64,000 bases of DNA from sequence record PZ019084.1, one strand, 5' to 3'. Below the pieces are notes generated by a model. It was given only the letters and a program-made list of their open reading frames with translations. It was not told the origin of the DNA and ran no database searches. Position 1 is the stretch's first letter; every line of letters begins with the position of its first letter. The DNA is from a phage. Below are positions 1-58,354 of this stretch, in pieces. A program made the position numbers and the translations under genes.

Positions 1-55
1 AGCTGTGAAAACACTTTCTGCTCGTGTAAAAGAACTTGAATCTAAACTTATGTAA
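1..55 (+). CDS. 37: 3' end of upstream late structural gene, probably long tail fibre distal subunit (partial)
   Basis: ORF enters from window start in frame 2 and ends ...AVKTLSARVKELESKLM* at 53-55; lies directly upstream of the adhesin gene as in T-even phages. Confidence 0.45.
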   Translation, partial: AVKTLSARVKELESKLM

Positions 56-56
56 A

Positions 57-74
57 AGAGGGCTTCGGCCCTCT
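57..74 (+). terminator. GC stem-loop (UUCG loop) followed by U-run between genes 37 and 38
   Basis: agagggcTTCGgccctct then ggattttta; hairpin plus T-run on coding strand. Confidence 0.4.
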
Positions 75-85
75 AAGGATTTTTA

Positions 86-880
86 ATGGCAATTGTAGGT
101 GTTCCTGGCTGGATTGGTGAATCTGCCGTGAATGAAACTGGACAACGTTGGATGGATGCTGCAATGAAAGCAGTTCGTGTTTCAGTTCCTGGCTGGATGA
201 GCTCAATGGCTGGGCAATCTAAAGAAGTATATTACAGTATTGGTGCTAGCAATTCTTATAATAAAGACACACTAATAAATTATCTCAAATCTCAAGGTAG
301 TACTCCTGTTGTTGTTACTATTACTGGTAACTTAGTTTCTTCATCTGCAAGGCAACCTTGCTTAGATTTTCCTAGCTCATTAACTAATGCTTATGTAACG
401 CTTATTATAAATGGCGGTGTAACAGTATACGGTCGCGGAGGACGCGGCGCGCAAGCGGGAAACCAGGCGGGTGAAGCTGGTGGTACTGCAATTAACAATG
501 GTATAGGTACTCGTCTACGAATCACTAACAATGGAGCAATCGCCGGCGGCGGAGGTGGTGGTGGCGCCCAATCAACTGATAATGGGTGGGGAGGTAAATA
601 TGTTTCTGGCGGGGGCGGCGGACGTCCTTTCGGAGCTGGTGGTAATAATGGAGCAAAAGCTCCGGGTGCATCAGCATCTTTAACATCTCCAGGCGCAGGC
701 GGAAAAATGTATTCCGGCGTTGGATACTACGGCGGTGACGGTGGTAATGTTGGTGAACGAGGTAAGGATGCGGTTAGATTGAACGGCTATTCGAACTCAC
801 CTGGCGCAGCAGGTAAAGCTGTTACTGGTAACGCACCAACTTGGACTAAAGTTGGTACAATATATGGTTCAAGAGTATAA
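86..880 (+). CDS. 38: tail fibre adhesin gp38, T2-type with glycine-rich motifs
   Basis: 264 aa; conserved N-terminal domain followed by several poly-Gly blocks (GGGGGGG, GGGGG) separated by short variable segments; position between 37 and t. Confidence 0.75.
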   Translation: MAIVGVPGWIGESAVNETGQRWMDAAMKAVRVSVPGWMSSMAGQSKEVYYSIGASNSYNKDTLINYLKSQGSTPVVVTITGNLVSSSARQPCLDFPSSLTNAYVTLIINGGVTVYGRGGRGAQAGNQAGEAGGTAINNGIGTRLRITNNGAIAGGGGGGGAQSTDNGWGGKYVSGGGGGRPFGAGGNNGAKAPGASASLTSPGAGGKMYSGVGYYGGDGGNVGERGKDAVRLNGYSNSPGAAGKAVTGNAPTWTKVGTIYGSRV

Positions 881-911: not shown

Positions 912-1568
912 ATGGCAGCACCTAGAATATCATTTTCGCCCTCTGATATTCTGTTGGGTGTTCTAGATCGCTTATTCAAAGATAACGCTACCGGGAAGGT
1001 TCTTGCTTCCCGAGTAGCTGTCGTAATTCTTTTATTTATGATGGCGATTGTTTGGTATAGGGGAGATAGTTTCTTTGAGTACTATAAGCAATCAAAGTAT
1101 GAAACATACAGTGAAATTATTGAAAAGGAAAGAAACGCACGCTTTGAATCTGTCGCCCTGGAACAACTCCAGATAGTTCACATATCATCTGAGGCAGACT
1201 TTAGTGCGGTGTATTCTTTCCGCCCTAAAAACTTAAACTATTTTGTTGATATTATAGCATATGAAGGAAAATTACCTTCAACAATAAGTGAAAAATCACT
1301 TGGAGGATATCCTGTTGATAAAACTATGGATGAATATACAGTTCATTTAAATGGACGTCATTATTATTCCAACTCAAAATTTGCTTTTTTACCAACTAAA
1401 AAGCCTACTCCCGAAATAAATTACATGTACAGTTGTCCATATTTTAATTTGGATAACATCTATGCTGGAACAATAACCATGTACTGGTATAGAAATGATC
1501 ATATAAGTAATGACCGCCTTGAATCAATATGTTCTCAGGCGGCCAGAATATTAGGAAGGGCTAAATAA
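912..1568 (+). CDS. t: holin
   Basis: 218 aa, same length as T4 holin T; N-terminal TM segment (VAVVILLFMMAIVWY) and large C-terminal domain; strong SD aaggaggg; position after 38. Confidence 0.85.
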   Translation: MAAPRISFSPSDILLGVLDRLFKDNATGKVLASRVAVVILLFMMAIVWYRGDSFFEYYKQSKYETYSEIIEKERNARFESVALEQLQIVHISSEADFSAVYSFRPKNLNYFVDIIAYEGKLPSTISEKSLGGYPVDKTMDEYTVHLNGRHYYSNSKFAFLPTKKPTPEINYMYSCPYFNLDNIYAGTITMYWYRNDHISNDRLESICSQAARILGRAK

Positions 1569-12481: not shown

Positions 12482-12514
12482 TAATTATACCACATCCTTG
12501 TGGTAAAGTAAACT
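12482..12514 (-). promoter_or_regulatory. T4-type early promoter
   Basis: minus strand GTTTAC (plus 12508-12513, overlapping gene 39 stop), 18-nt spacer, perfect TATAAT (plus 12484-12489). Confidence 0.6.
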
Positions 12515-14330
12515 ATTGGCTCATCCATTCTTTACGAAGGTCAGCATTATCTCCCATGAGCATTTCAAAAAGCTCTTTCCAGTTCTCAGGAAGTTTAACA
12601 ACATCATATACTGGGTTTTGAATCATCTCACGATATTCAGATTTTTCCAAAGAGCCAAGTCCCTTAATATAACGGATGCTATGTTTAGGTAGAGCATCCT
12701 TGACACTCTCATATTCAGCGACTGTATAAAACCATTCTTGTTTTTTACCGACCTGAGCGATGATTACAGGAGTTTTGACGAAGCGAATTCTTCCTTGATC
12801 AAACAGTTCTGGCCAATTACTAAAAAATCCGAGCAGAGAAGGATAAATGCTCCCTAGACCATCATGGTCAGCATCAGTCATAATAGCAATATTATGATAA
12901 TTCAAGTTTTCAGCTTTTTCACCAAGAACTAATCCAGTGATTGCGCAAATGTCAAACAGTTCTTTGTTTTTAAGCATATCAGCATATGACATACCCCAGC
13001 TATTAAGAACTTTACCACGCAATGGATAACCACCATGAAGTTCTTTATCACGAACATCAATAAGATATCCGATAGCGGAATCACCCTCAGTCAAGAAAAG
13101 AGTAGTGTCAGCATCTTTACCACAAAGATTCGCTTTAATATGTTTATGAACCTTAGCTTTAGAAGCCTTTTTAGCTGCTTTAGTTTCTGCTGCTTTTTCT
13201 GCCGCCAATTTACGAGCCAAGGCAGCTTCAATGATTGGCATTAAAATTGCTTCATTATTTAAAATAGCGCGTGAAATCTTTTTAGCATCAAGCTGAATAT
13301 GACTACGAATTTCACCAAAAGGAGAAGTCAAACGCTCTTTAGTCTGAGAATCAAATCGCATGTTTTTCATATCACGAACAAACATAACGATAGTCAAACA
13401 TTCTTTAACACGTGCTTTAGTTACATCAATTTTGAACTTGCGTTTGATTTGTGGAATAAGGTCTTCACAAATATCATCCATAACACAGTCAATATGATGG
13501 CCACCATTCTTAGTATGAATGTTATTGACGTATGTTAATTGACGAAAACCATCAGGTGAACGACCAACCGCAATAGAACAATTTTCTTGTTCTTGAACGA
13601 TAGCATGCTCATCATATTGGCGTGCATATTTCTTAAAATTACCCTGAACCTTTTTACCGTTAAAGGTAAATTGAATATCAGGATAAACTACTGCAAGCGT
13701 CTGGAGACGATCCAGTGTAATGTCAAGATAAACTTGAGATAGCTCATTAGTTTCAAATGACATAAAATCAGGAATGAAAGTAACACGAGTTCCTTTCCAT
13801 TTTCCAGGAATAGTTTCCCATGATTTATTTTCCATGCCATTTGAACAACGAACTACAATATTATTTTGACCGTCGCCAGTTTCACCGACAAACATCACAG
13901 AAAAAATGTTAGTTAAACTAGAACCAACACCATTCATACCGCCAGTGACGCGTTCTTTATCATCACCAAAGTTACCACCTGCTTTTGGAATAGTCCAGGC
14001 AGCAACAGGACCAGGAATTTCTTCACCAGTAGGTGTTTTAACCATCGCTTGTGGAATACCACGACCATTATCTTCAACTGTTACTTGATTGTTTTTAATA
14101 GTAACATTAATTTTATTTGCGAATTTAAACTTAGTACGAATACCTTCATCTACTGAGTTATCGATAATTTCATCAATAAGCTTAACAAGACCAGGTACAT
14201 ACTGAACACTTTCCCATTTACCAAACAGAAAGCGCTCATGCATTTCATTAGCAGAAGAGCCAATATACATGCCGCTACGCTTTTTGATATGTTCAATATC
14301 GCTCAGAATTTTAATTTCATTCTTAATCAT
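12513..14330 (-). CDS. 39: DNA topoisomerase II large subunit (GyrB-like), fused 39+60 form
   Basis: ~605 aa single ORF with ATPase N-terminus and TOPRIM C-terminus; ORF track begins one codon earlier at GTG 14333. Confidence 0.9.
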   Translation of the reverse strand: MIKNEIKILSDIEHIKKRSGMYIGSSANEMHERFLFGKWESVQYVPGLVKLIDEIIDNSVDEGIRTKFKFANKINVTIKNNQVTVEDNGRGIPQAMVKTPTGEEIPGPVAAWTIPKAGGNFGDDKERVTGGMNGVGSSLTNIFSVMFVGETGDGQNNIVVRCSNGMENKSWETIPGKWKGTRVTFIPDFMSFETNELSQVYLDITLDRLQTLAVVYPDIQFTFNGKKVQGNFKKYARQYDEHAIVQEQENCSIAVGRSPDGFRQLTYVNNIHTKNGGHHIDCVMDDICEDLIPQIKRKFKIDVTKARVKECLTIVMFVRDMKNMRFDSQTKERLTSPFGEIRSHIQLDAKKISRAILNNEAILMPIIEAALARKLAAEKAAETKAAKKASKAKVHKHIKANLCGKDADTTLFLTEGDSAIGYLIDVRDKELHGGYPLRGKVLNSWGMSYADMLKNKELFDICAITGLVLGEKAENLNYHNIAIMTDADHDGLGSIYPSLLGFFSNWPELFDQGRIRFVKTPVIIAQVGKKQEWFYTVAEYESVKDALPKHSIRYIKGLGSLEKSEYREMIQNPVYDVVKLPENWKELFEMLMGDNADLRKEWMSQ

Positions 14331-14382
14331 CACTTATCCTCGTTTGGTTTCGGGAATATTATACTCCGGTAATCATAAAGCT

Positions 14383-26778: not shown

Positions 26779-27405
26779 TTAACCTCTATTCATAAAAGCA
26801 TTAAAAATTTGGTCATCAATAGAAACATCTACTTTAGACTGTTTTTCTGACGGTAATTCATATCCACATATTACAATTTTGTGATCAATATCAAAATACA
26901 CAGAAGCAATATGATTAATGATGTTTTCAGTAAAGTCTAAATCAACATCAATATCTTTTTGACCACAGCCCAAAGGATAAATAATGCGAGTAATTCGATT
27001 ATCTTTAACAAAGATTCCACCGACATACTCTGTGCTGCGTTCAAAATCTACACGCCGACGAAATGAAAAATATTCAGGCTCTTTATGAGCTCTGCTCATA
27101 GGACACAACGAGTAACTAGAATAAGAGATGTCAAATCCTACGCCTTCGATATGAGCCAAAGTGTCATGATTAAACCAATTATAATCGTACGCCAAGTCCA
27201 TTAGATTATAATATGTAAAAGGCACCGGATTAACATCATTAGTCACAAGCATATAATTAGCAACTGCTATAATTTCATTGTTTTTAACGAATACAAACCG
27301 TGATTGATGCGAATGACCTGGACCCGCGTTTTCACGATTAATGATATAACACTGGGCACCTTTATATTTGTATGTATCTTTGCACTTGTGCATTTGATAG
27401 AGCAT
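26779..27405 (-). CDS. hypothetical protein (61.2 position)
   Basis: 208-aa ORF. Confidence 0.5.
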   Translation of the reverse strand: MLYQMHKCKDTYKYKGAQCYIINRENAGPGHSHQSRFVFVKNNEIIAVANYMLVTNDVNPVPFTYYNLMDLAYDYNWFNHDTLAHIEGVGFDISYSSYSLCPMSRAHKEPEYFSFRRRVDFERSTEYVGGIFVKDNRITRIIYPLGCGQKDIDVDLDFTENIINHIASVYFDIDHKIVICGYELPSEKQSKVDVSIDDQIFNAFMNRG

Positions 27406-40206: not shown

Positions 40207-40923
40207 ATGAATTATAAACTAATTTATGAAAAGTTAATCTCTAATGCTAAATCTCGAAAACTTGATTGCTATACTGAATCTCATCACATTATACCACGCT
40301 GTTTAAATGGTAGCGATGACGCTTCAAACTTAGTAGATTTAACACCAGAAGAGCACTATGTAGCTCATCAACTTTTAGTAAAAATTTATCCTTCTGAACC
40401 AAAATTAGTCTATGCTGCTAACATGATGACAGTTTCTACGAAATACGCTAAACGTAACAATAAAACTTTCGGCTGGATTCGTCGTAAACTCTGGGAAATA
40501 GAAAAGAATAAAGAGTTCTCCCAAGAGACACGAAAGAAAATGTCCGACGCAGTAGCTAATAAAGCAAGACTAACTTGTCCACATTGCGGTAAGTCTGGAT
40601 TAAGCGGGAATATGAATCGATGGCATTTTGATAACTGCCCAAATCACCCCAATCCTAAAGTTAGACCGCCAATGTCTAAAGAACACAGAAATAATATCTC
40701 AAACGGGCTTAAAGCAATCGTTCTTGAAGAAACATCATGCGAATTCTGCGGAATGATAGGCAAGAAATGCGTTATCGCAGCGCATAGAAATTTCTGCAAG
40801 AAAAATCCAAATGGACGCAAGAAAACTGAAAAGACTGGTACTTGCGTCCATTGTGGTAAAGTTACCACGTTCGGAAATTTATCAAGATGGCATAATGATA
40901 ATTGTAAATATAAACCTAGCTAA
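40207..40923 (+). mobile_element. free-standing HNH homing endonuclease gene
   Basis: 238 aa; N-terminal HNH motif (ESHHIIPRCLNGSDDASNLVDLTPEEHYVAHQ) and repeated CxxCGK...RWHxDNC zinc-ribbon modules; opposite strand to flanking genes. Confidence 0.8.
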
Positions 40924-49487: not shown

Positions 49488-49958
49488 TTAATCATGTTTC
49501 CACACCCCATCGGTATTTGACCAAAGTCGCTGATTATCTGATCCTCGCCACAGCTTTTTAGTCGGAAGATTTTTCTCATACTTCCCATCAATAATAACAT
49601 CAACATATTTAAGCATTTCTAGTTGTTTAATATCTTCAAACTTGTATCCTGTCCACAACCAAATGCTTTTATTTGGATAAAGATTTTTTACCGTTTGAAC
49701 AATACAATGAACAACATCCCGGTTATCAGGATAAAGAGGGTCTCCTCCAGTTATAGTTAATCCTTCTATATAATCATTATTCAAACATTCAATTAATTGT
49801 TCTAGTGTTTCACCAGTGAATGGAACGCCATTTCTAGCATTCCATGTTGATTTATTATAACATCCTTCACATTTATGCAAACACCCCGTAACGAAAAGAA
49901 CGACCCTGCATCCAGGGCCATTCACAAAATCACAGGGATAAAATCTATCGTAATTCAT
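49488..49958 (-). CDS. nrdG: anaerobic ribonucleotide reductase activating protein (radical SAM)
   Basis: 156 aa; CxxxCxxC cluster (CLHKCEGC); coupled to nrdD. Confidence 0.85.
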   Translation of the reverse strand: MNYDRFYPCDFVNGPGCRVVLFVTGCLHKCEGCYNKSTWNARNGVPFTGETLEQLIECLNNDYIEGLTITGGDPLYPDNRDVVHCIVQTVKNLYPNKSIWLWTGYKFEDIKQLEMLKYVDVIIDGKYEKNLPTKKLWRGSDNQRLWSNTDGVWKHD

Positions 49959-51772
49959 TGGTGTTTAACCCTATGCATGATTTCTTTATTTTTGCCGAGA
50001 TTAAATCCACGTTCATTCGGATTTCCCAAATAACCACAAGTTCTTCTTATTGTGTTCATCTTTTTAGGATCAGTTTCTCCACAAATAGAACAAACAAACC
50101 CGTTTTCAGTAGGAGTCATTTCATGAGTACTTCCGCATGTAAAACATTTATCTACTGGCATATTAACACCAAAATAATCTAAATGTTGTGCAGCATAATC
50201 CCAGACAGCCTCAAGACCTTTTAGGTTATTTTTCATATCAGGAAGTTCAACATAAGAAATGTGACCACCTGTCGCAATGAAATGATATGGGGCTTCGCGA
50301 GAAATCTTTTCAAACGGGGTGATATTTTCTTCTACTGAAACGTGGAAACTGTTAGTGTACCAGCCTTTATCAGTAACATCCTTTACACTTCCATATTTCT
50401 CAGTATCAAGTTTACAGAAGCGATAGCACAGGTTTTCAGCAGGAGTAGAATACAAGCTAAAAGCAAAACCGGTTCTTTCAGTCCACTGCTTAAGACGAGC
50501 ATTCATTTTAGTTAAAATTTCCTGTCCAATATCACGACCGACAAGAATATTCAATTCGTGAATACCAATGTATCCTAGGGACACTGAACTTCTACCATTT
50601 TTAAATAACTCAATTATGTCATCATCAGGTTTAAGACGAACCCCGAATGCACCTTCTTGGTAAAGAATAGGAGCAACAGTCGCTTTAACTCCTTTTAAGG
50701 AACTAATTCTACACATCAAAGCTTCAAAACACAAATCCATTCGTTCATTGAACAATTCGGCAAATTTCTGTTCATTGAATTGTGTTCCAATATAAGAATC
50801 TAACGCAATACGAGGAAGATTCAGTGTTACAACACCAAGATTATTACGTCCATCAAGAATTTCATTACCAGTCGAATCTTTCCATACGCTCAAGAAACTG
50901 CGGCAACCCATTGGAGAAACAGGAATAGATGAACCTGTGATAGCTTTATTATTCTTAACTGAAATAATATCAGGATACATTCTTTTGCTTGCGCATTCTA
51001 GAGCAAGCTGCTTAATATCATAGTTCGGATCGTCTTTATAAAGATTGACACCCTCTTCAATGAACATAACAAGTTTAGGGAAAATAGGAGTTATCCCATC
51101 ACGACCAAGACCTTTAATACGATTTTTCAGAATTGCCTTCTGAATCATTCGTTCAGTCCAGTCAGTTCCCGTGCCAAACGTAATTGTTACAAAAGGCGTT
51201 TGTCCGTTTGAACTAAAGAGAGTATTTACTTCATATTCATAAGCTTGGAATGCATCGTATACGTCTTTTTCTGTTTTAGATTGGGCATAATTCAAAGCAT
51301 CAGCGATTTGCCATTTTTCTGCATCCTCAATATGTTTTGCATAGGTGCGTTTAACATAAGGAGAAAGTACTTTATCTACATTAGCAAAAGTCGTTCCGCC
51401 ATACTGATGTGAAGCAACCTGTGCGGTAATTTGTGCCATAATTGCAGTAGCAACACCAATCGATTTAGGCGTTTCAATTTGAGCATTACCTAGCTTAAAT
51501 CCTTTTTCAAGCATTCCTTTTAAATCTACTAAACAGCAATTAGTAAATGGAAGAGCAGGGGAATAATCAATATCATGAAAATGGATAATTCCGCTTTCAT
51601 GTGCTTTCATAATAAAAGACGGGACCATATTTTTGGCAATGTGCTTAGACACAATACCAGCCATAAGGTCCCGTTGAGTTGGAAAAACACGAGAATCTTT
51701 ATTAGCATTCTCGTTTAAAAGGTCTTTATTAGTTTTATGAATCAATCCTTCAATTTCTTTTTCAATTGTCAT
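49955..51772 (-). CDS. nrdD: anaerobic ribonucleoside-triphosphate reductase
   Basis: 605 aa continuous ORF; C-terminal glycyl-radical region and CxxC zinc site. Confidence 0.9.
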   Translation of the reverse strand: MTIEKEIEGLIHKTNKDLLNENANKDSRVFPTQRDLMAGIVSKHIAKNMVPSFIMKAHESGIIHFHDIDYSPALPFTNCCLVDLKGMLEKGFKLGNAQIETPKSIGVATAIMAQITAQVASHQYGGTTFANVDKVLSPYVKRTYAKHIEDAEKWQIADALNYAQSKTEKDVYDAFQAYEYEVNTLFSSNGQTPFVTITFGTGTDWTERMIQKAILKNRIKGLGRDGITPIFPKLVMFIEEGVNLYKDDPNYDIKQLALECASKRMYPDIISVKNNKAITGSSIPVSPMGCRSFLSVWKDSTGNEILDGRNNLGVVTLNLPRIALDSYIGTQFNEQKFAELFNERMDLCFEALMCRISSLKGVKATVAPILYQEGAFGVRLKPDDDIIELFKNGRSSVSLGYIGIHELNILVGRDIGQEILTKMNARLKQWTERTGFAFSLYSTPAENLCYRFCKLDTEKYGSVKDVTDKGWYTNSFHVSVEENITPFEKISREAPYHFIATGGHISYVELPDMKNNLKGLEAVWDYAAQHLDYFGVNMPVDKCFTCGSTHEMTPTENGFVCSICGETDPKKMNTIRRTCGYLGNPNERGFNLGKNKEIMHRVKHQ

Positions 51773-54085: not shown

Positions 54086-54368
54086 TTTCTTCTCGGTTAA
54101 ATCGGTGTTTGCAATGACGGCATTTATAACGAAGATTACTAGTCTGCCAATGGACTAATTGAACCTGTTCAGTACCGCATTCAGGACAATTAGGAACGTT
54201 TTTAGAAGCCCTTTCGCGACGTTCAACCATAGCCATAATGGCATCCCAAGCTGGAGGTTTAAAATCTAAATCGTCAGTAACTAGCAGTCCTTTATCAAAC
54301 CCAGCGCATGGAGTCCATTCAGGAAAATCTGAAGCTTCGGCAATATCTTCTAATAGACGCTTTTTCAT
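54072..54368 (-). CDS. zinc-ribbon protein
   Basis: 98 aa with CPEC...CRHC pair. Confidence 0.5.
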
Positions 54369-55294
54369 TTCAATACCTCAATAGCATTACGTAAACCATT
54401 TGCTTTTGCATTAAGAGCTTTTAACAATTTAGTGTGTTCGGCAATCTGGGCTTCAACTTCAATCAAACGAGCATTGAGATATTCGCGTTCTTCGCTCAGG
54501 CTATCAACCTTTTCTACTTTAGGTTCTTTTACAATTGGCTTGTATGTATTAGGGTTCTTCAGTTTAATTAGAATGCGTGAGCTGTATAACATTGAACCAT
54601 TATCTTCGGTTTCGTCATACATTTCTACTACGTCCATGATTTTTAACATCATGCGGAGTTTATAAGACAACGAACGAATAGTTTTGTTGTGCTTATTAAT
54701 TTCTCTAGCTGTCATGGTGCCGAGATTACGTGAGTAATAATAAGGAACCTGGATATTAATTAATACTGATGAACCACCTGGCTTGTGTGTTACTTCATCA
54801 GCAATAACCCAGTCCTTAACATGAACTGTATTTGTACGGTCATCACCCGCGGTAAACAGTTTGCGAGCATGCTTAAAAAGCATATTCACTTGGTCATTGA
54901 ATTGACAAGCAAATTTATCAGCAAATTTAGTTTCAGGAATGGTAGATAACCAATCAGCCAAATGGGTCTTTTTAACATCGTTAACAATAGTAAATTCAAC
55001 CAAATCGGTTATAGATGTCGCAGATTTAATGAAGCTCGGCTTCATAAAGTTTTTAATGTTATCACTAGCTACAGTAGAAGATAACAGACGAGAACGTTTA
55101 AACCATTGAAGCAAATTGCCTAACGAATGAGAATAAGCGTTTTGAGTATCTTTACAGATATGATTTTCCTGGCCAACATATTGAAGGAAATCACGAAGAA
55201 TATTATTGATTATTGCTCTGTGCCCAATCTGATAATTACGATGTTTAGTAATAAGACTGTCAAAATAATCAATATAATGTTTACGAGTTTTCAT
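54365..55294 (-). CDS. hypothetical protein, member A of tandem paralog family with coiled-coil C-terminus
   Basis: 309 aa; N-terminus MKTRKHYIDYFDS resembles the next two ORFs; C-terminal heptad-like region. Confidence 0.55.
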   Translation of the reverse strand: MKTRKHYIDYFDSLITKHRNYQIGHRAIINNILRDFLQYVGQENHICKDTQNAYSHSLGNLLQWFKRSRLLSSTVASDNIKNFMKPSFIKSATSITDLVEFTIVNDVKKTHLADWLSTIPETKFADKFACQFNDQVNMLFKHARKLFTAGDDRTNTVHVKDWVIADEVTHKPGGSSVLINIQVPYYYSRNLGTMTAREINKHNKTIRSLSYKLRMMLKIMDVVEMYDETEDNGSMLYSSRILIKLKNPNTYKPIVKEPKVEKVDSLSEEREYLNARLIEVEAQIAEHTKLLKALNAKANGLRNAIEVLK

Positions 55295-55346
55295 GTTCTT
55301 CTCACTTGGTTAATGATTTATACTCCGAGCCATCCTTGGCTTTAAA

Positions 55347-56348
55347 TTACTTAATTAACTGTAAAGCTTGTTCAAGACGATCCAGACGATTAACAGATTC
55401 TTCCCAAATCCTTTTAGCCTGCTCATATTCTTTCTGCGCTTTATTAGAAATTTCTAGAGCTTCTTTATAAGCTTTTTCTAGTGCAATAACTTCTGGACGA
55501 ATTTCTACATGTTCAGGCGAATCATCAAGATTATCCATTAGTTCCTCAAGTGTAATTTCTTCTTTAGGAGTATTCACAATTTCATCACATTTTTGTTGGT
55601 AAATTTCTTTATCAGTCGGTAAATAAGCACATTTCACTTCACGAAGACTAACTACAATTTTATATCCTTCCCAACCGCATATATTCTTAAAAGGATACGT
55701 ATGAATATTTTCTACTGTTTCCATACAAAGTAATGCGGTTTCTAATTGACGAGTTATAGTGCTAGCAATTGAGAAAAATTTATTAATGTTCTTTTGGTTA
55801 GTTTCTGGTGTAAAAAATCCATAATTCACAAAAATAGATACTTTATTTTTATCAAGTTCATATTCTTTTATGATAATCATATCAGAAGCCAAAGGATGAA
55901 TTTGACGATAATCGCCATAACATAATTTAGAAGCTGATTTTAGAATCTGTCCTTTGAAAAGTCTGAAATTACTAATCCAACGACGAGTAAAAATATTCTC
56001 AGGGTCTTCTTTATTATTAAGATGATAAGAATTAACATCACCGAACCAATTATATCCTACTACATCTTTGGTTCGTTTAATTTCTTTCCCAAAATTACCA
56101 AGAATATCCCGATTAACCAAATATGAAAGAAGACGAGACTCTTTAAAGGTTTTCTTGATAACATCTTTATCTACACGGCTAGAAATTTTACGAATTTCAT
56201 GAATAAATTTAGTAGAAGAAACAATACCTGCATCAACACTATTGAGCCATTGATTGATAATAGAAATAACGCTATTTTGACCAAACATCGGTATAGCTTT
56301 ATCATCAATAACGCTGTTGAATGATTTGATATATTCGTTACGAGTCAT
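55347..56348 (-). CDS. hypothetical protein, member B of tandem paralog family
   Basis: start set at ATG 56348 (MTRNEYIKSFNS...) with SD gaggaga and early promoter; C-terminal coiled coil. Confidence 0.55.
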   Translation of the reverse strand: MTRNEYIKSFNSVIDDKAIPMFGQNSVISIINQWLNSVDAGIVSSTKFIHEIRKISSRVDKDVIKKTFKESRLLSYLVNRDILGNFGKEIKRTKDVVGYNWFGDVNSYHLNNKEDPENIFTRRWISNFRLFKGQILKSASKLCYGDYRQIHPLASDMIIIKEYELDKNKVSIFVNYGFFTPETNQKNINKFFSIASTITRQLETALLCMETVENIHTYPFKNICGWEGYKIVVSLREVKCAYLPTDKEIYQQKCDEIVNTPKEEITLEELMDNLDDSPEHVEIRPEVIALEKAYKEALEISNKAQKEYEQAKRIWEESVNRLDRLEQALQLIK

Positions 56349-56376
56349 AATAATCTCCTCAGTAGAAAGTAAGAAC

Positions 56377-56406
56377 ATTATACCACATCCTTGTGGCGAA
56401 GTAAAC
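56377..56406 (-). promoter_or_regulatory. T4-type early promoter
   Basis: minus strand GTTTAC (plus 56401-56406), 18-nt spacer with ccacatccttgtgg inverted repeat, TATAAT. Confidence 0.55.
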
Positions 56407-57434
56407 TAGTTTAGTGCATTTAGTGCATTGTTTAGTTTAGAACGTTGCTTCGTGAGATTTTTGACTTTTTCTTGAGCTTTTTCTAGCATCTTTTCAGCTT
56501 CTAACACTTCATTAGTTGCTTTAACGAGTTCATCATCTACTGCCTTGATAGACTTCTCAATCGCATCGGCATGCCATTTTTCAACAGGTTTAAGACTCGG
56601 ATTTTCAACAGGAAGAAAATTCACTTTATTGAATTTCCATGCATCATTATTACCTGAACTATACATCCAAAATTTAGGATCGTTTGATGAGTAATTGGAT
56701 AAATTTAAATTTAAGTTATCTTGCACTTCTTGCTTTTTCTCTTGTGTAACTTCGTCCTTTCTCAAAAATTCATATTTAAATGAAACGATCATATCAAGTT
56801 CATACGTTGTTGTATGTTCCCAATTTCGCTCAAAACGAGGTAAAATCTTAGACTGAACTGCAGCAACAACATCCATATACTTAAATGCTTCTGTCAACTG
56901 CGATTTAAGGCATTCGCAAATTGAAAGAGAATTTTTTGTATTAGGTTTAAAGCTAATTCGTGCAGTTCTGTTATTTTCTTTTAATGGTCTTACTTCCATC
57001 TGAAGAGTATAACCATCAAATTTCAGATTCTTTAAGTTAATATCAGAACCTTTTAATCGACTCGCAGTTGATAAAATTTGCTTTAATTGTCTACGGAACA
57101 GAGCAATAAATCTCCATTCAATACGATAATGATTTGGATTGAAAAATCCAGATAATAAATCGACCTTACTTTGACCAACGCCTTGAACAAATAGAGGATT
57201 TTTATAATCAATAGTTTTACAGAAATCTGTGAGCTGCTCACGAGCCGTCATTTGTGTAATATACCCCGCTTTACTAAAATTACTCACCCATTCACTGCTA
57301 TTTAGATATTTAAAATGATGAATAGCACGATTAACTTTATCAGGGTCTAAATTATTTTGACACAAAAATGTCATAACATCACGAGTATAGCTGGCATTAC
57401 GAACCATATCTTCAATTTGAGAACGAGTTTTCAT
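56406..57434 (-). CDS. hypothetical protein, member C of tandem paralog family
   Basis: 342 aa; N-terminus MKTRSQIEDMVRN; C-terminal coiled coil. Confidence 0.55.
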   Translation of the reverse strand: MKTRSQIEDMVRNASYTRDVMTFLCQNNLDPDKVNRAIHHFKYLNSSEWVSNFSKAGYITQMTAREQLTDFCKTIDYKNPLFVQGVGQSKVDLLSGFFNPNHYRIEWRFIALFRRQLKQILSTASRLKGSDINLKNLKFDGYTLQMEVRPLKENNRTARISFKPNTKNSLSICECLKSQLTEAFKYMDVVAAVQSKILPRFERNWEHTTTYELDMIVSFKYEFLRKDEVTQEKKQEVQDNLNLNLSNYSSNDPKFWMYSSGNNDAWKFNKVNFLPVENPSLKPVEKWHADAIEKSIKAVDDELVKATNEVLEAEKMLEKAQEKVKNLTKQRSKLNNALNALN

Positions 57435-57442
57435 GGTGTTCC

Positions 57443-58354
57443 TTAAGATTTAAGTAAATCAACAATTTTAATTAACTTTTCACGCTCAGATTTAGCTTTA
57501 CTACTCAATCCAGATAGTCTGAAAATTTCATCGTCATATTGTTGAATAGAAATATTCAGCTCTTCAATCTGCTTATTAAAATAATCAATTTGTTCAGAAT
57601 GTTTTTCGTTACTACGAACTGGTACAGGTTTTGTAGGCAATGTAGTTGAACTGGATTCATCCGGGCGATAAATTAAAATACAGCTTGAACCAATAGGGCA
57701 TTTTTCACCAGATGAATATTCTAATGTTCCAGCTTCTTTTAAAACTTCAAAAGCTAAACAGAGATGATGACCCATATTAACATAATCTGTAGAGTGAGCT
57801 CTGATGTAATAATCATCTCCACGAATACTAAATTTAAAGCATTTAAGGTCTTCTGTATTATTGGTCTTAAAAATCATTTGTTTATCTAGACCTTTAGCTA
57901 ATCGAGCGCCTAATGCTAATAGTCGTCGTTGATTTTCCCACAAATCTGCGATCATTTGATCGAATGATAATTTTGGCATCAGTCGACCATAAAGGTCATA
58001 TCCTTTATTGTAATTACGAAGAATTTCACTCGCGTTAATACGAGACAATGCTCCAATTTTATTAAGGGCTTTCATAATGCGATTAGATAAACTCATTCCA
58101 GACCCATTTGTTCGCTGTAAATGTTTTTCTAATCCAAATCCAATATCAACTTTAAACTTATCTAAAATTTCTGCATGAACATCTCTGTCGATAACATTCA
58201 AATCCAAAGTTGAGTTAAATCTATGAAAAAATTTATCTGGCTCTCCACGACGAAGTACAGTCCATTCATTCATCATTTTTTTATTAACTAAAGATTTAAT
58301 TACTGCATTGACATTATTAATTACTACTGACATATTTTCCTCACTCAATTTCAA
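57443..58354 (-). CDS. hypothetical protein, member D (more divergent) with coiled-coil C-terminus
   Basis: 303-aa ORF contiguous with A-C. Confidence 0.5.
   Translation of the reverse strand: MKLSEENMSVVINNVNAVIKSLVNKKMMNEWTVLRRGEPDKFFHRFNSTLDLNVIDRDVHAEILDKFKVDIGFGLEKHLQRTNGSGMSLSNRIMKALNKIGALSRINASEILRNYNKGYDLYGRLMPKLSFDQMIADLWENQRRLLALGARLAKGLDKQMIFKTNNTEDLKCFKFSIRGDDYYIRAHSTDYVNMGHHLCLAFEVLKEAGTLEYSSGEKCPIGSSCILIYRPDESSSTTLPTKPVPVRSNEKHSEQIDYFNKQIEELNISIQQYDDEIFRLSGLSSKAKSEREKLIKIVDLLKS

Follow-up and report, generated by a model that had tools for sequence, protein, structure and literature searches.

Gene 38 of the phage sequence PZ019084.1 encodes a T2-type receptor-binding adhesin with OmpC as its predicted receptor

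In phages T2 and T6 (PMC3157838) and in S16 (PMC6851490), the gp38 protein is present in the virion and is needed for adsorption, not for assembly. T4 gp38 is not a virion component, and the tip of T4 gp37 itself binds the receptor (PMC6851490, PMC12892980). Receptor recognition by gp38 has been established through domain swaps between T6, RB5 and PST (PMC3157838) and, for the PP01 protein, through cross-linking and loop swaps (PMC12892980). The hallmark of these adhesins is a set of five glycine-rich motifs (GRMs) that occur in a fixed order and have hypervariable segments (HVSs) between them (Trojet 2011, PMC3157838); exchange of gp38 from HVS2 onward switches the receptor (bioRxiv 10.64898/2026.04.02.716166). 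Their fold, as PMC6851490 relates it from Dunne 2018, has three domains: an attachment domain made of helices and bearing three Trp residues at its apex, a beta-helix and a polyglycine-II sandwich. The role of the three Trp residues of S16 gp38 in the attachment domain has been described (PMC6851490). The literature already covers this kind of adhesin with its fold and modular evolution, and even the receptor of the allele considered here, and gene 38 of the present sequence encodes an ordinary, well-understood receptor-binding tip protein that raises no new biological question.

The gene 38 locus and its protein family

The window analysed here comprises 64,000 nucleotides of phage DNA (sequence record PZ019084.1), and gene 38 is located close to its beginning, in the following context.

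2..55, + strand: 3' end of gene 37 (long tail fibre distal subunit), its last 17 codons (AVKTLSARVKELESKLM) and the stop codon, read from the translation
57..74, + strand: intercistronic hairpin AGAGGGC-UUCG-GCCCUCU, with a 7 bp stem and a UUCG tetraloop, found by folding
75-79, + strand: Shine-Dalgarno sequence AAGGA, 3' of the hairpin and ahead of gene 38
86..880, + strand: gene 38, coding for a 264-aa receptor-binding adhesin, presumably of the long tail fibre tip (ORF; Pfam, PHROG and PDB sequence matches)
912..1568, + strand: gene t (holin), the downstream neighbour of gene 38 (Pfam Phage_holin_T, 2.4e-117)

In the ORF list, gene 38 begins with an ATG codon and its stop codon occupies positions 878-880 of the + strand. 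Gene 37 is represented in the window by its final 17 codons, the rest lying upstream; all 17 residues are those of the T2 gp37 C-terminus and 16 of them those of Sf22 gp37, and this end is unrelated to the ends of the T4 and PP01 proteins. Gene 38 is thus placed directly 3' of gene 37 and 5' of the holin gene t, as expected for a T2-type gp38, and the gene order 37-38-t-asiA is common to Sf22, T2, T4, PP01 and S16. The intercistronic hairpin (-13.4 kcal/mol) was also flagged as a terminator-like site; its stability does not exceed that of 61-nt controls obtained by shuffling (z = -0.66). The whole window was also scanned with Rfam and for tRNAs, with no matches. The GC content reaches 53-56% at positions 401-800, the region rich in Gly codons, versus 29-35% downstream from about position 1100. 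Four small ORFs overlap gene 38 (48-206, 391-531 and 525-686 on the - strand, and 531-683 on the + strand); in our judgement they merely result from the stretch of GC-rich Gly codons.

The 264-aa reading frame with its poly-glycine architecture is present as an earlier reading of the DNA, made from the sequence alone, had described it, and the assignment made there of the protein to the T2-type adhesins, as opposed to the T4-type chaperones, proved correct. The window gp38 is a full-length member of the T2-type adhesin family: it matches the Pfam family GP38 (PF05268) with residues 47-264 over profile positions 1-218 of 218 (8.3e-73, 245.3 bits) and the family Gp38_N (PF21721) with residues 1-42 (7.3e-18, 64.7 bits), both above the curated cut-off of 25 bits that applies to each of these models. 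It also matches PHROG 2056 ("tail fiber protein; host specificity") at 2e-102, the PDB entries 9V85 (5.7e-56) and 6F45_D (3.2e-45) at the sequence level and, end to end, T2 gp38 with 61% identity in BLASTP. NCBIfam contains no model for either the T2-type adhesin or the T4-type gp38 chaperone.

One could nevertheless read the protein as a T4-type assembly chaperone that serves gp37 folding and is absent from the virion. The case for this consists entirely of the position of the gene between 37 and t and of inherited GenBank labels on the same allele in ime09 and SA21RB ("distal long tail fiber assembly catalyst"). Against it stands the alignment with T4 gp38 itself: this 183-aa protein shows no similarity to the window gp38 in BLASTP (E=0.81 over 5 residues), matches no Pfam family and consequently shares none with it, and a tblastn search with T4 gp38 over the entire window gave nothing below E=2. 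Nor was a homolog of the T4 gp37 tip found anywhere in the window. Moreover, the predicted fold equals that of solved adhesin structures (see below), amber-truncated T6 gp38 yields normal-looking virions that are unable to adsorb (PMC3157838), and T2-type gp37, as in T2 and Sf22, has an S74 chaperone domain of its own. BLASTP, Pfam, the tblastn search over the window and the fold together rule out a T4-type chaperone identity, to which we assign a practically negligible probability. The proper label for the gene product is therefore "long tail fibre receptor-binding adhesin gp38" and not "assembly catalyst", as it reads in some records of the same allele.

Glycine-rich motifs, variable segments and predicted structure

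Residues 1-110 of the window gp38 contain 9% glycine versus 32% in residues 111-264, where runs of seven (154-160) and five (175-179) glycines and eight GG pairs are found. Glycine composition provides only a moderate argument for discrete blocks, because a run of at least seven glycines turned up 419 times when the whole protein was shuffled 100,000 times, and 2,577 times in as many shuffles of the glycine-rich half alone. The decisive argument is that the blocks sit on conserved alignment columns, as seen from column entropies in an alignment with 104 full-length homologs. The division of the protein is as follows.

86..223, + strand: N-terminal attachment domain, residues 1-46, predicted to dock on the gp37 trimer (Gp38_N at 1-42; three helices)
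224..430, + strand: central beta-helix domain, first part, residues 47-115 (predicted strands, pLDDT 90-98)
431..448, + strand: GRM1, residues 116-121 (GRGGRG); G116, R117, G118 and G119 are invariant in 93-96 sequences
449..478, + strand: variable segment, residues 122-131, with 122-127 corresponding to PP01 loop A in the loop mapping; 1.80 bits
545..565, + strand: GRM2, residues 154-160 (GGGGGGG); 0.17 bits, Gly frequency 0.98
566..607, + strand: HVS, residues 161-174 (AQSTDNGWGGKYVS), with 164-173 corresponding to PP01 loop B; 2.67 bits, 50% identity to PP01 and 21% to T2
608..643, + strand: GRM3, residues 175-186 (GGGGGRPFGAGG); 0.49 bits, 92% identity to each of PP01, T2 and S16
644..691, + strand: HVS, residues 187-202, with 187-192 corresponding to PP01 loop C; 1.94 bits, 75% identity to PP01 and 33% to T2
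692..703, + strand: GRM4, residues 203-206 (GAGG); G203 at least 90% conserved, least conserved GRM (1.57 bits)
704..733, + strand: HVS, residues 207-216, with 207-214 corresponding to PP01 loop D; 2.59 bits, 2-residue insertion relative to PP01
734..763, + strand: GRM5, residues 217-226 (GDGGNVGERG); G217, G219, G220, G223 and G226 invariant or at least 90% conserved, 0.86 bits
764..802, + strand: HVS, residues 227-239, with 230-236 corresponding to PP01 loop E; 2.41 bits
803..877, + strand: conserved C-terminal motif, residues 240-264 (GAAGKAVTGNAPTW...GSRV), leading back to the beta-helix; 0.83 bits

Mean column entropies amount to 0.24 bits for GRM1, 0.17 for GRM2, 0.49 for GRM3 and 0.86 for GRM5, in comparison with 1.80-2.67 bits for the five segments between the motifs and about 1.0 bit for the N-terminal 115 residues. 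GRM4, in the four-residue form delimited in our analysis, has 1.57 bits and reaches into the lower part of the range seen in variable segments. With the exception of this weakly conserved motif, the window gp38 hence displays the five-GRM/HVS architecture of the family, and the proposal that poly-glycine blocks separate short variable segments is borne out by motifs mostly at 0.2-0.9 bits and HVSs at 1.8-2.7 bits; that the blocks might fall on non-conserved positions is contradicted by the 104 homologs. Cluster P0002, which is 92% identical, has 22 substitutions, of which 18 fall into HVSs and none into GRMs. The N-terminal domain had likewise been described as conserved, which holds within types (96% identity to T2 over residues 1-46) but not across them (46% to PP01).

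An AlphaFold2 model of the window gp38 (pLDDT 91, pTM 0.87) points to the three-domain adhesin fold. The model superimposes on the receptor-binding domain of PP01 gp38 as solved by crystallography (9V85) with an rmsd of 1.1 Å and a TM score of 0.95 on the target, and on S16 gp38 (6F45_D) with TM scores of 0.81/0.86; a PDB structure search with the model returned nothing below E=1 beyond these two entries. Helices are predicted at residues 10-18, 23-29 and 38-41, preceded by W9, W22 and W37 at conserved Trp positions. Strands are predicted at 48-52, 55-58, 75-79, 83-85, 93-95, 104-108 and 113-115 in the first part of the beta-helix domain and at 246-248, 252-255 and 258-260 in the C-terminal motif. 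Model confidence is lowest in the HVS at 161-174 (pLDDT 69).

Relatives of this protein and the literature suggest how it would work. The gp38 protein would be carried in the virion, where its three short N-terminal helices, each following one of the Trp residues W9, W22 and W37, would be inserted at the base of the gp37 trimer. The gp37 protein would be processed and folded by means of its own C-terminal self-cleaving chaperone domain, so that a T4-type gp38 would not be needed. The central beta-helix would bear two long excursions whose GRMs may form polyglycine-II helices that stack into a rigid "sandwich", and the variable segments would form five loops at the far end that bind to a porin of the outer membrane at its extracellular loops. 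Taken as a whole, we consider it very probable that the window gp38 is a T2-type adhesin at the fibre tip whose loops contact a porin, most probably OmpC.

Predicted receptor and host range

The closest relatives of the window gp38 are found in the Tequatrovirus phages Sf22 and KRT47 (Shigella), ime09 (E. coli) and CrRp10 (Citrobacter), whose gp38 proteins also comprise 264 aa, are encoded in the same 37-38-t context and are 1-2 aa away from the window protein. K28R is the sole difference from Sf22 gp38, while R89G and S262A are the only ones from KRT47 gp38; neither protein differs from the window gp38 in any HVS, and among the four relatives a loop change is found solely in CrRp10 (G167R in loop B). 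What sets the window protein apart is the combination of K28, R89 and S262, which is absent from these four phages, and its exact sequence was not found in a collection of 15 billion proteins. A phenotypic effect of K28 together with R89, both located outside the loops, is conceivable at most. At the DNA level, gene 38 of the window is 97.2-97.9% identical to its counterparts in Sf22, KRT47, ime09 and CrRp10 and the changes are nearly all synonymous; five close relatives differ at 17-21 of 792 nucleotides, yet by just 1-2 amino acids.

Sf22 and KRT47 are reported to need OmpC, and resistance mutations map to OmpC loops 5 and 7 (PMC12892980, citing Tinney et al. 2022), a dependence that we take from citations in two later papers. 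Since the loops of the window gp38 are identical to those of these two OmpC-dependent adhesins, OmpC is most probably its primary receptor, and a list of candidate receptors drawn up in the sequence-only reading (OmpA, OmpC, OmpF, FadL, Tsx) can be narrowed, as a prediction, to OmpC. The nearest receptor-typed outgroup of the allele group is the OmpC binder PP01, to which the HVSs are related with an identity of 0.48; to the other gp38 clusters, the median is 0.17. G208 and Y230 of PP01 gp38 cross-link to OmpC (PMC12892980); they align with G213 in loop D and Y235 in loop E of the window protein. In a screen of 73 Straboviridae phages, the OmpC-specific phages, 17 in number, all recognized the porin via the tip of gp37, and OmpC was not the receptor of any of the 54 gp38 adhesins that had been typed (bioRxiv 10.64898/2026.04.02.716166), which makes an OmpC-binding gp38 a minority type. 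OmpC would be predictable from sequence alone as the primary receptor of such a phage, which is useful in phage cocktail design, where common resistance routes are to be avoided, and for ompC mutant controls.

A different receptor, either FadL/OmpF as in T2 or else OmpA or Tsx, is suggested by the 96% identity of the N-terminal 46 residues to T2, by the predominance of Tsx, OmpA and OmpF among the receptors of typed gp38 adhesins (PMC12032242), and by single HVS substitutions that can switch the receptor, for instance from OmpF to OmpW in RB68 (bioRxiv 10.64898/2026.04.02.716166). Specificity, however, maps to the C-terminal HVS region and not to the N-terminus (PMC3157838), the HVSs of the window gp38 are 21-33% identical to those of T2 versus 100% to those of OmpC-dependent Sf22 and KRT47, and the closest typed outgroup, PP01, binds OmpC; we therefore regard a non-OmpC receptor as very unlikely. 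How far an OmpC-binding gp38 would determine the range of hosts is a separate matter. According to the sequence-only reading, the gp38 loops, and not the gp37 tip, probably set host range, a statement that close homology to proven systems upholds for the primary receptor but that is overstated for host range as a whole, because the recorded hosts differ among phages that share these loops: four Shigella species for Sf22, Shigella and E. coli for KRT47, E. coli for ime09 and for ECP2301, and Citrobacter rodentium together with several E. coli strains for CrRp10. There is a considerable chance, if somewhat short of even, that the loops fix the primary receptor only and that host-range differences among phages with this allele are set elsewhere; gp12 short tail fibres together with the LPS core, O-antigen access, and intracellular defence and counter-defence are the places that come into consideration. 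The differing hosts of phages whose gp38 proteins are at most two residues apart (PMC7412075) and gp12 alleles that set the secondary LPS receptor independently of gp38 (bioRxiv 10.64898/2026.04.02.716166) speak for this, although host fields in databases record what was tried and not complete host ranges, and G167R in loop B of CrRp10 could contribute. Such a division of labour complements the explanation of gp38 as an OmpC-directed adhesin.

Phages of the OmpC-specific gp38 allele group were isolated on Escherichia, Shigella and Citrobacter. We think it conceivable, if rather doubtful, that this group, with its T2-type attachment domain and PP01-like loops, represents a broad cross-genus adhesin that is fine-tuned by single loop-B substitutions such as G167R in CrRp10. 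If so, the K28/R89/S262 combination of the window protein would be a neutral variant, and the allele group would offer a compact model of how gp38, and not a T4-type gp37 tip, reads OmpC loops 5 and 7.

A mosaic gene compared with T2, PP01, S16 and T4

Gene 38 of the window is a mosaic in which a T2-like attachment domain and gp37 end are combined with the loops of a small allele group. T2 gp38, the prototype adhesin and a FadL/OmpF binder of 262 aa, belongs to the same family, has the same GRM order and is 96% identical over residues 1-46, but its HVSs are only 21-39% identical to those of the window gp38, so the receptor is expected to differ from that of T2. The DNA identity to T2 follows the same pattern: from about 100% it falls to 28-78% between nucleotides ~160 and ~900 and returns to at least 98% in gene t. 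From phage F13076, gene 38 diverges in a block at nucleotides ~280-800. In the near-identical relative Sf22, the T2 relationship extends to the fibre partner, as the last 167 residues of Sf22 gp37 are 94.6% identical to T2 gp37, 28% to PP01 and unrelated to T4, and full-length Sf22 and T2 gp37 have a C-terminal Peptidase_S74 domain where T4 gp37 instead has Collar and fibre-repeat domains.

T4 gp38 has nothing in common with the window gp38 beyond its name and the place of its gene, likewise between 37 and t; neither sequence similarity nor a common Pfam family links the two proteins. S16 gp38 of the Salmonella phage, which binds Salmonella OmpC and is known from the gp37 trimer-gp38 complex (6F45), shares the three domains, the Trp anchors and the GRM order with the window protein; it differs from it in an overall identity of 44-47%, HVSs of 7-30% identity, some shorter loops and its genus, Gelderlandvirus. 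The best structural match is PP01 gp38 (9V85), which binds E. coli O157 OmpC. Loops B and C of the two proteins are much alike (TDNGWGGKYV versus QANNWAGKYV and NNGAKA versus NNGARW), but over the N-terminal 115 residues the identity drops to 41%, and the gp37 partner of PP01 has a different C-terminus. The DNA identity to PP01 across gene 38 is only 35-75%, for which reason we rejected the idea that the loops were acquired from a PP01-like gene by recent recombination; the likeness to PP01 is accordingly old and lies at the protein level.

Gene 38 and the family of its product

The features at gene 38 are:

gene 37, last 17 codons (AVKTLSARVKELESKLM), the only part of this gene in the window
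57-74 (+), 7-bp hairpin AGAGGGC-UUCG-GCCCUCU with a C(UUCG)G tetraloop (-13.4 kcal/mol)
75-79, AAGGA ribosome-binding site of gene 38
86-880 (+), gene 38, ATG start, encoding the 264-aa gp38
912-1568, gene t (T holin), the directly downstream neighbor

The gp38 ORF was found where the sequence-only reading had placed it, and the gene order 37-38-t-asiA is the canonical one, common to T2, Sf22, PP01, S16 and T4. The hairpin is positioned within the 30-nt spacer between genes 37 and 38, immediately 5' of the ribosome-binding site; it is similar to the very stable intercistronic UUCG hairpins of T4, and it has no excess stability relative to shuffled 61-nt controls (z = -0.66).

The sequence-only reading had regarded gp38 as the long glycine-rich, T2-type adhesin and not as the short T4 chaperone, an assignment that our database searches corroborate. 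The protein matches the Pfam families GP38 (8.3e-73, full profile) and Gp38_N (7.3e-18), PHROG 2056 ('tail fiber protein; host specificity') and both solved adhesins, those of PP01 (9V85; 5.7e-56) and S16 (6F45_D; 3.2e-45), and it aligns with T2 gp38 over the full length (61% identity, BLASTP). In contrast, no similarity to the 183-aa T4 gp38 chaperone was detected (E=0.81 over 5 residues), a protein with zero Pfam family matches; together with the adhesin-family matches, this rules out a T4-type chaperone. The 64-kb window contains no homolog of T4 gp38 or of the T4 gp37 tip. The T2-type adhesin predominates among T4-like phages (PMC3157838), its structure has been solved, and the present allele is one to two residues away from the adhesins of characterized phages. 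The sole practical yield is a receptor prediction and a correct label for those records of the allele that still read 'assembly catalyst'. The ime09 record (L005 86-880, JN202312.1) and other GenBank entries name the same allele 'distal long tail fiber assembly catalyst', 'tail assembly protein' or 'hypothetical protein'; such labels transfer to it a function that belongs to the unrelated T4 gp38.

Glycine accounts for 32% of residues 111-264 and for 9% of residues 1-110, with runs of seven (154-160) and five (175-179) and several GG pairs; the corresponding DNA (401-800) has a GC content of 53-56%, compared with 29-35% further downstream. A run of at least seven glycines arose in 0.4% of whole-protein shuffles and in 2.6% of shuffles of the glycine-rich half. 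By itself, composition is a moderate argument, while positional conservation is a strong one. We aligned gp38 to named references and to 93-104 full-length homologs from a search of 5.8 billion proteins. The glycine blocks fall on conserved columns, mostly invariant or nearly so, which bears out the sequence-only reading; between them lie the variable segments that it described.

[quoted passage not shown]
GRM1, 116-121, GRGGRG, 0.24 bits
GRM2, 154-160, G7, 0.17 bits
GRM3, 175-186, GGGGGRPFGAGG, 0.49 bits
GRM4, 203-206, GAGG, 1.57 bits
GRM5, 217-226, GDGGNVGERG, 0.86 bits

Entropy is 1.8-2.7 bits in the segments between the GRMs (122-131, 161-174, 187-202, 207-216 and 227-239), about 1.0 bit over the first 115 residues of the protein and 0.83 bits over the last 25. 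GRM4, only four residues as delimited here, is the weak point, with an entropy close to the lowest values of the variable segments; its G203 is at least 90% conserved. This pattern is the GRM/hypervariable segment (HVS) design of Trojet et al. (2011; PMC3157838).

We derived an AlphaFold2 model from a 93-sequence alignment (mean pLDDT 91, pTM 0.87); it predicts short N-terminal helices (10-18, 23-29 and 38-41), preceded by W9, W22 and W37, respectively, and then a beta-helix. Within residues 154-245, DSSP assigns almost no helix or strand, in keeping with polyglycine-II helices; confidence is lower in variable loops (e.g., pLDDT 69 at 161-170). When compared with the PDB by Foldseek, the model matched the PP01 gp38 receptor-binding domain (rmsd 1.1 Å over 219 columns, TM 0.95 on target) and S16 gp38 (TM 0.81/0.86); all other matches had E >1.

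Mosaic structure, predicted receptor and host range

Gene 38 is a mosaic. Residues 1-46 of its product share 96% identity with T2 and 46% with PP01, while for the HVSs the values are 48-75% with PP01 and 21-39% with T2. N-terminal and HVS identities are uncoupled across homologs (0.97 vs. 0.22 in cluster P0008; 0.41 vs. 0.76 in P0022). DNA identity to F13076, among the best backbone matches, is at least 95% up to nt ~280, 35-80% until nt ~800, at least 90% again from there and 92-100% through gene t; the low-identity block delimits the exchanged specificity cassette. With T2, ~100% identity extends to nt ~160 and resumes at ~920. PP01 DNA identity is low over the whole gene, and its resemblance is therefore old.

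The phage is a Tequatrovirus whose backbone shares 96-97% identity with several phages, with an exact match to none. Its gene 38 allele occurs at full length in only about nine phages among 50,697 records: KRT47, ECP2301, ime09, Sf22, CrRp10 and ESh26 share 97.2-97.9% nucleotide identity with the window, and SP21535 and SA21RB 93-94%. Gene 38 is under purifying selection within the allele group: the 17-21 nucleotide differences in 792 nt entail only one to two amino-acid changes. In the somewhat more distant cluster P0002 (92% identity), the HVSs (24% of the length) take up 18 of 22 substitutions and the GRMs none.

Amino-acid differences from the window gp38
Sf22: K28R
KRT47: R89G, S262A
ECP2301: R89G, S262A
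ime09: K28R, R89G
CrRp10: R89G, G167R

By alignment, PP01 loops A-E correspond to residues 122-127, 164-173, 187-192, 207-214 and 230-236. Sf22 and KRT47 have every receptor loop in identical form; both phages reportedly depend on OmpC, and the resistance mutations lie in its loops 5 and 7 (Tinney et al., 2022, as cited in PMC12892980). PP01 itself binds OmpC of E. coli O157, and its two OmpC cross-linking residues, G208 and Y230 (PMC12892980), have conserved counterparts in G213 and Y235. In a comparison with 95 other gp38 sequences, HVS identity reached 0.71-0.94 in seven clusters of the same allele group and 0.44-0.48 in PP01 and two further clusters; the remainder were at or below 0.29 (median 0.17). 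From the identical loops and the likeness to PP01, we therefore predict OmpC as the receptor. Such a gp38 would belong to a minority, as two sources, including Lutz et al., indicate; in the other, a screen of 73 phages, the 17 phages specific for OmpC all relied on gp37 tips, and OmpC was the target of none of the 54 typed gp38 adhesins (bioRxiv 10.64898/2026.04.02.716166).

The proposal that the gp38 loops set host range held for the primary receptor but not for host range as a whole. Different hosts are on record for phages that share these loops fully or almost so: four Shigella species for Sf22, Shigella and E. coli for KRT47, E. coli for ime09 and ECP2301, and Citrobacter rodentium together with several strains of E. 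coli and one of Erwinia for CrRp10 (records; PMC7412075). Moreover, a secondary LPS receptor is determined, independently of gp38, by the short tail fiber gp12 (bioRxiv 10.64898/2026.04.02.716166). The loops are thus necessary for host range yet do not fully determine it. In CrRp10, the sole receptor-loop difference is G167R in the loop-B equivalent (L008 584-586, codon 167), a change that could be host-adaptive or neutral.

Other loci of the window

12513-14333 (-), gene 39, topoisomerase II large subunit, a single uninterrupted 606-aa ORF (HATPase, GyrB, TOPRIM_C)
26779-27405 (-), 208-aa protein, Pfam AdfA (anti-DarT factor A; 1.6e-135)
40207-40923 (+), 238-aa ORF on the strand opposite to all neighbors, overlapping the end of gene 46 by 8 nt
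49955-51772 (-), nrdD, anaerobic ribonucleotide reductase, an uninterrupted 605-aa ORF
54365-57434 (-), two tandem PHROG 1435 paralogs (309 and 343 aa), then a DUF7235 protein (342 aa)
57443-58354, PHROG 2257 protein, forming with the preceding three a block of large uncharacterized genes

The T4 gene 39/60 split goes along with a translational-bypass element; since gene 39 is one uninterrupted ORF, this phage lacks the T4-specific split. T4 nrdD carries an intron; an Rfam search of the window revealed neither a group I intron nor any other RNA family, and tRNA genes are absent as well. The AdfA-family gene is a counter-defense against the DarTG toxin-antitoxin system. The 238-aa ORF matches the homing-endonuclease PHROG 655 (8.6e-69) and no Pfam family, and among 504 phage records matching the region only about 60 contain the locus in full, a distribution that fits a sporadic free-standing homing endonuclease.

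The gp37/gp38 module in comparison with T2, T4 and S16

The gp37 end in the window matches T2 exactly and bears no relation to T4 or PP01. For Sf22, identity over the last 167 gp37 residues amounts to 94.6% with T2 and 28% with PP01, and T4 gave no match. A Peptidase_S74 intramolecular chaperone domain lies at the C-terminus of both Sf22 and T2 gp37; in T4 gp37 there are Collar and fiber-repeat domains. A T2-like gp37 end thus travels together with a T2-like gp38 attachment domain as a T2-type module, which would make a T4-type gp38 chaperone unneeded.

A 261-aa gp38-family adhesin (53% identity to the window gp38) is also encoded chromosomally in Enterobacter hormaechei (L011 5188-8786; GCA_023754485.1, 1.1-Mb contig), directly 3' of a fiber gene (937 aa) that encodes gp36, gp37_trimer and Peptidase_S74 domains. 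The neighborhood of these genes resembles a siphovirus-type prophage (portal, capsid protease, Phage_Tail_Tip); hence, the gp37-tip/gp38 module is not restricted to T4-like lytic phages.

Judged from characterized relatives, one gp38 monomer would cap the gp37 trimer via three Trp-tipped helices, and the GRMs would pack into a polyglycine-II sandwich carrying five distal loops that contact the extracellular loops of OmpC; reversible binding of the long tail fibers would then lead to baseplate deployment, as in other T-even phages. The T2-type gp37 C-terminus/gp38 module fits the docking mechanism of S16, for which the authors of the structure described the three Trp residues as anchors into the gp37 trimer and proposed the distal HVS loops as the receptor-binding site (PMC6851490).
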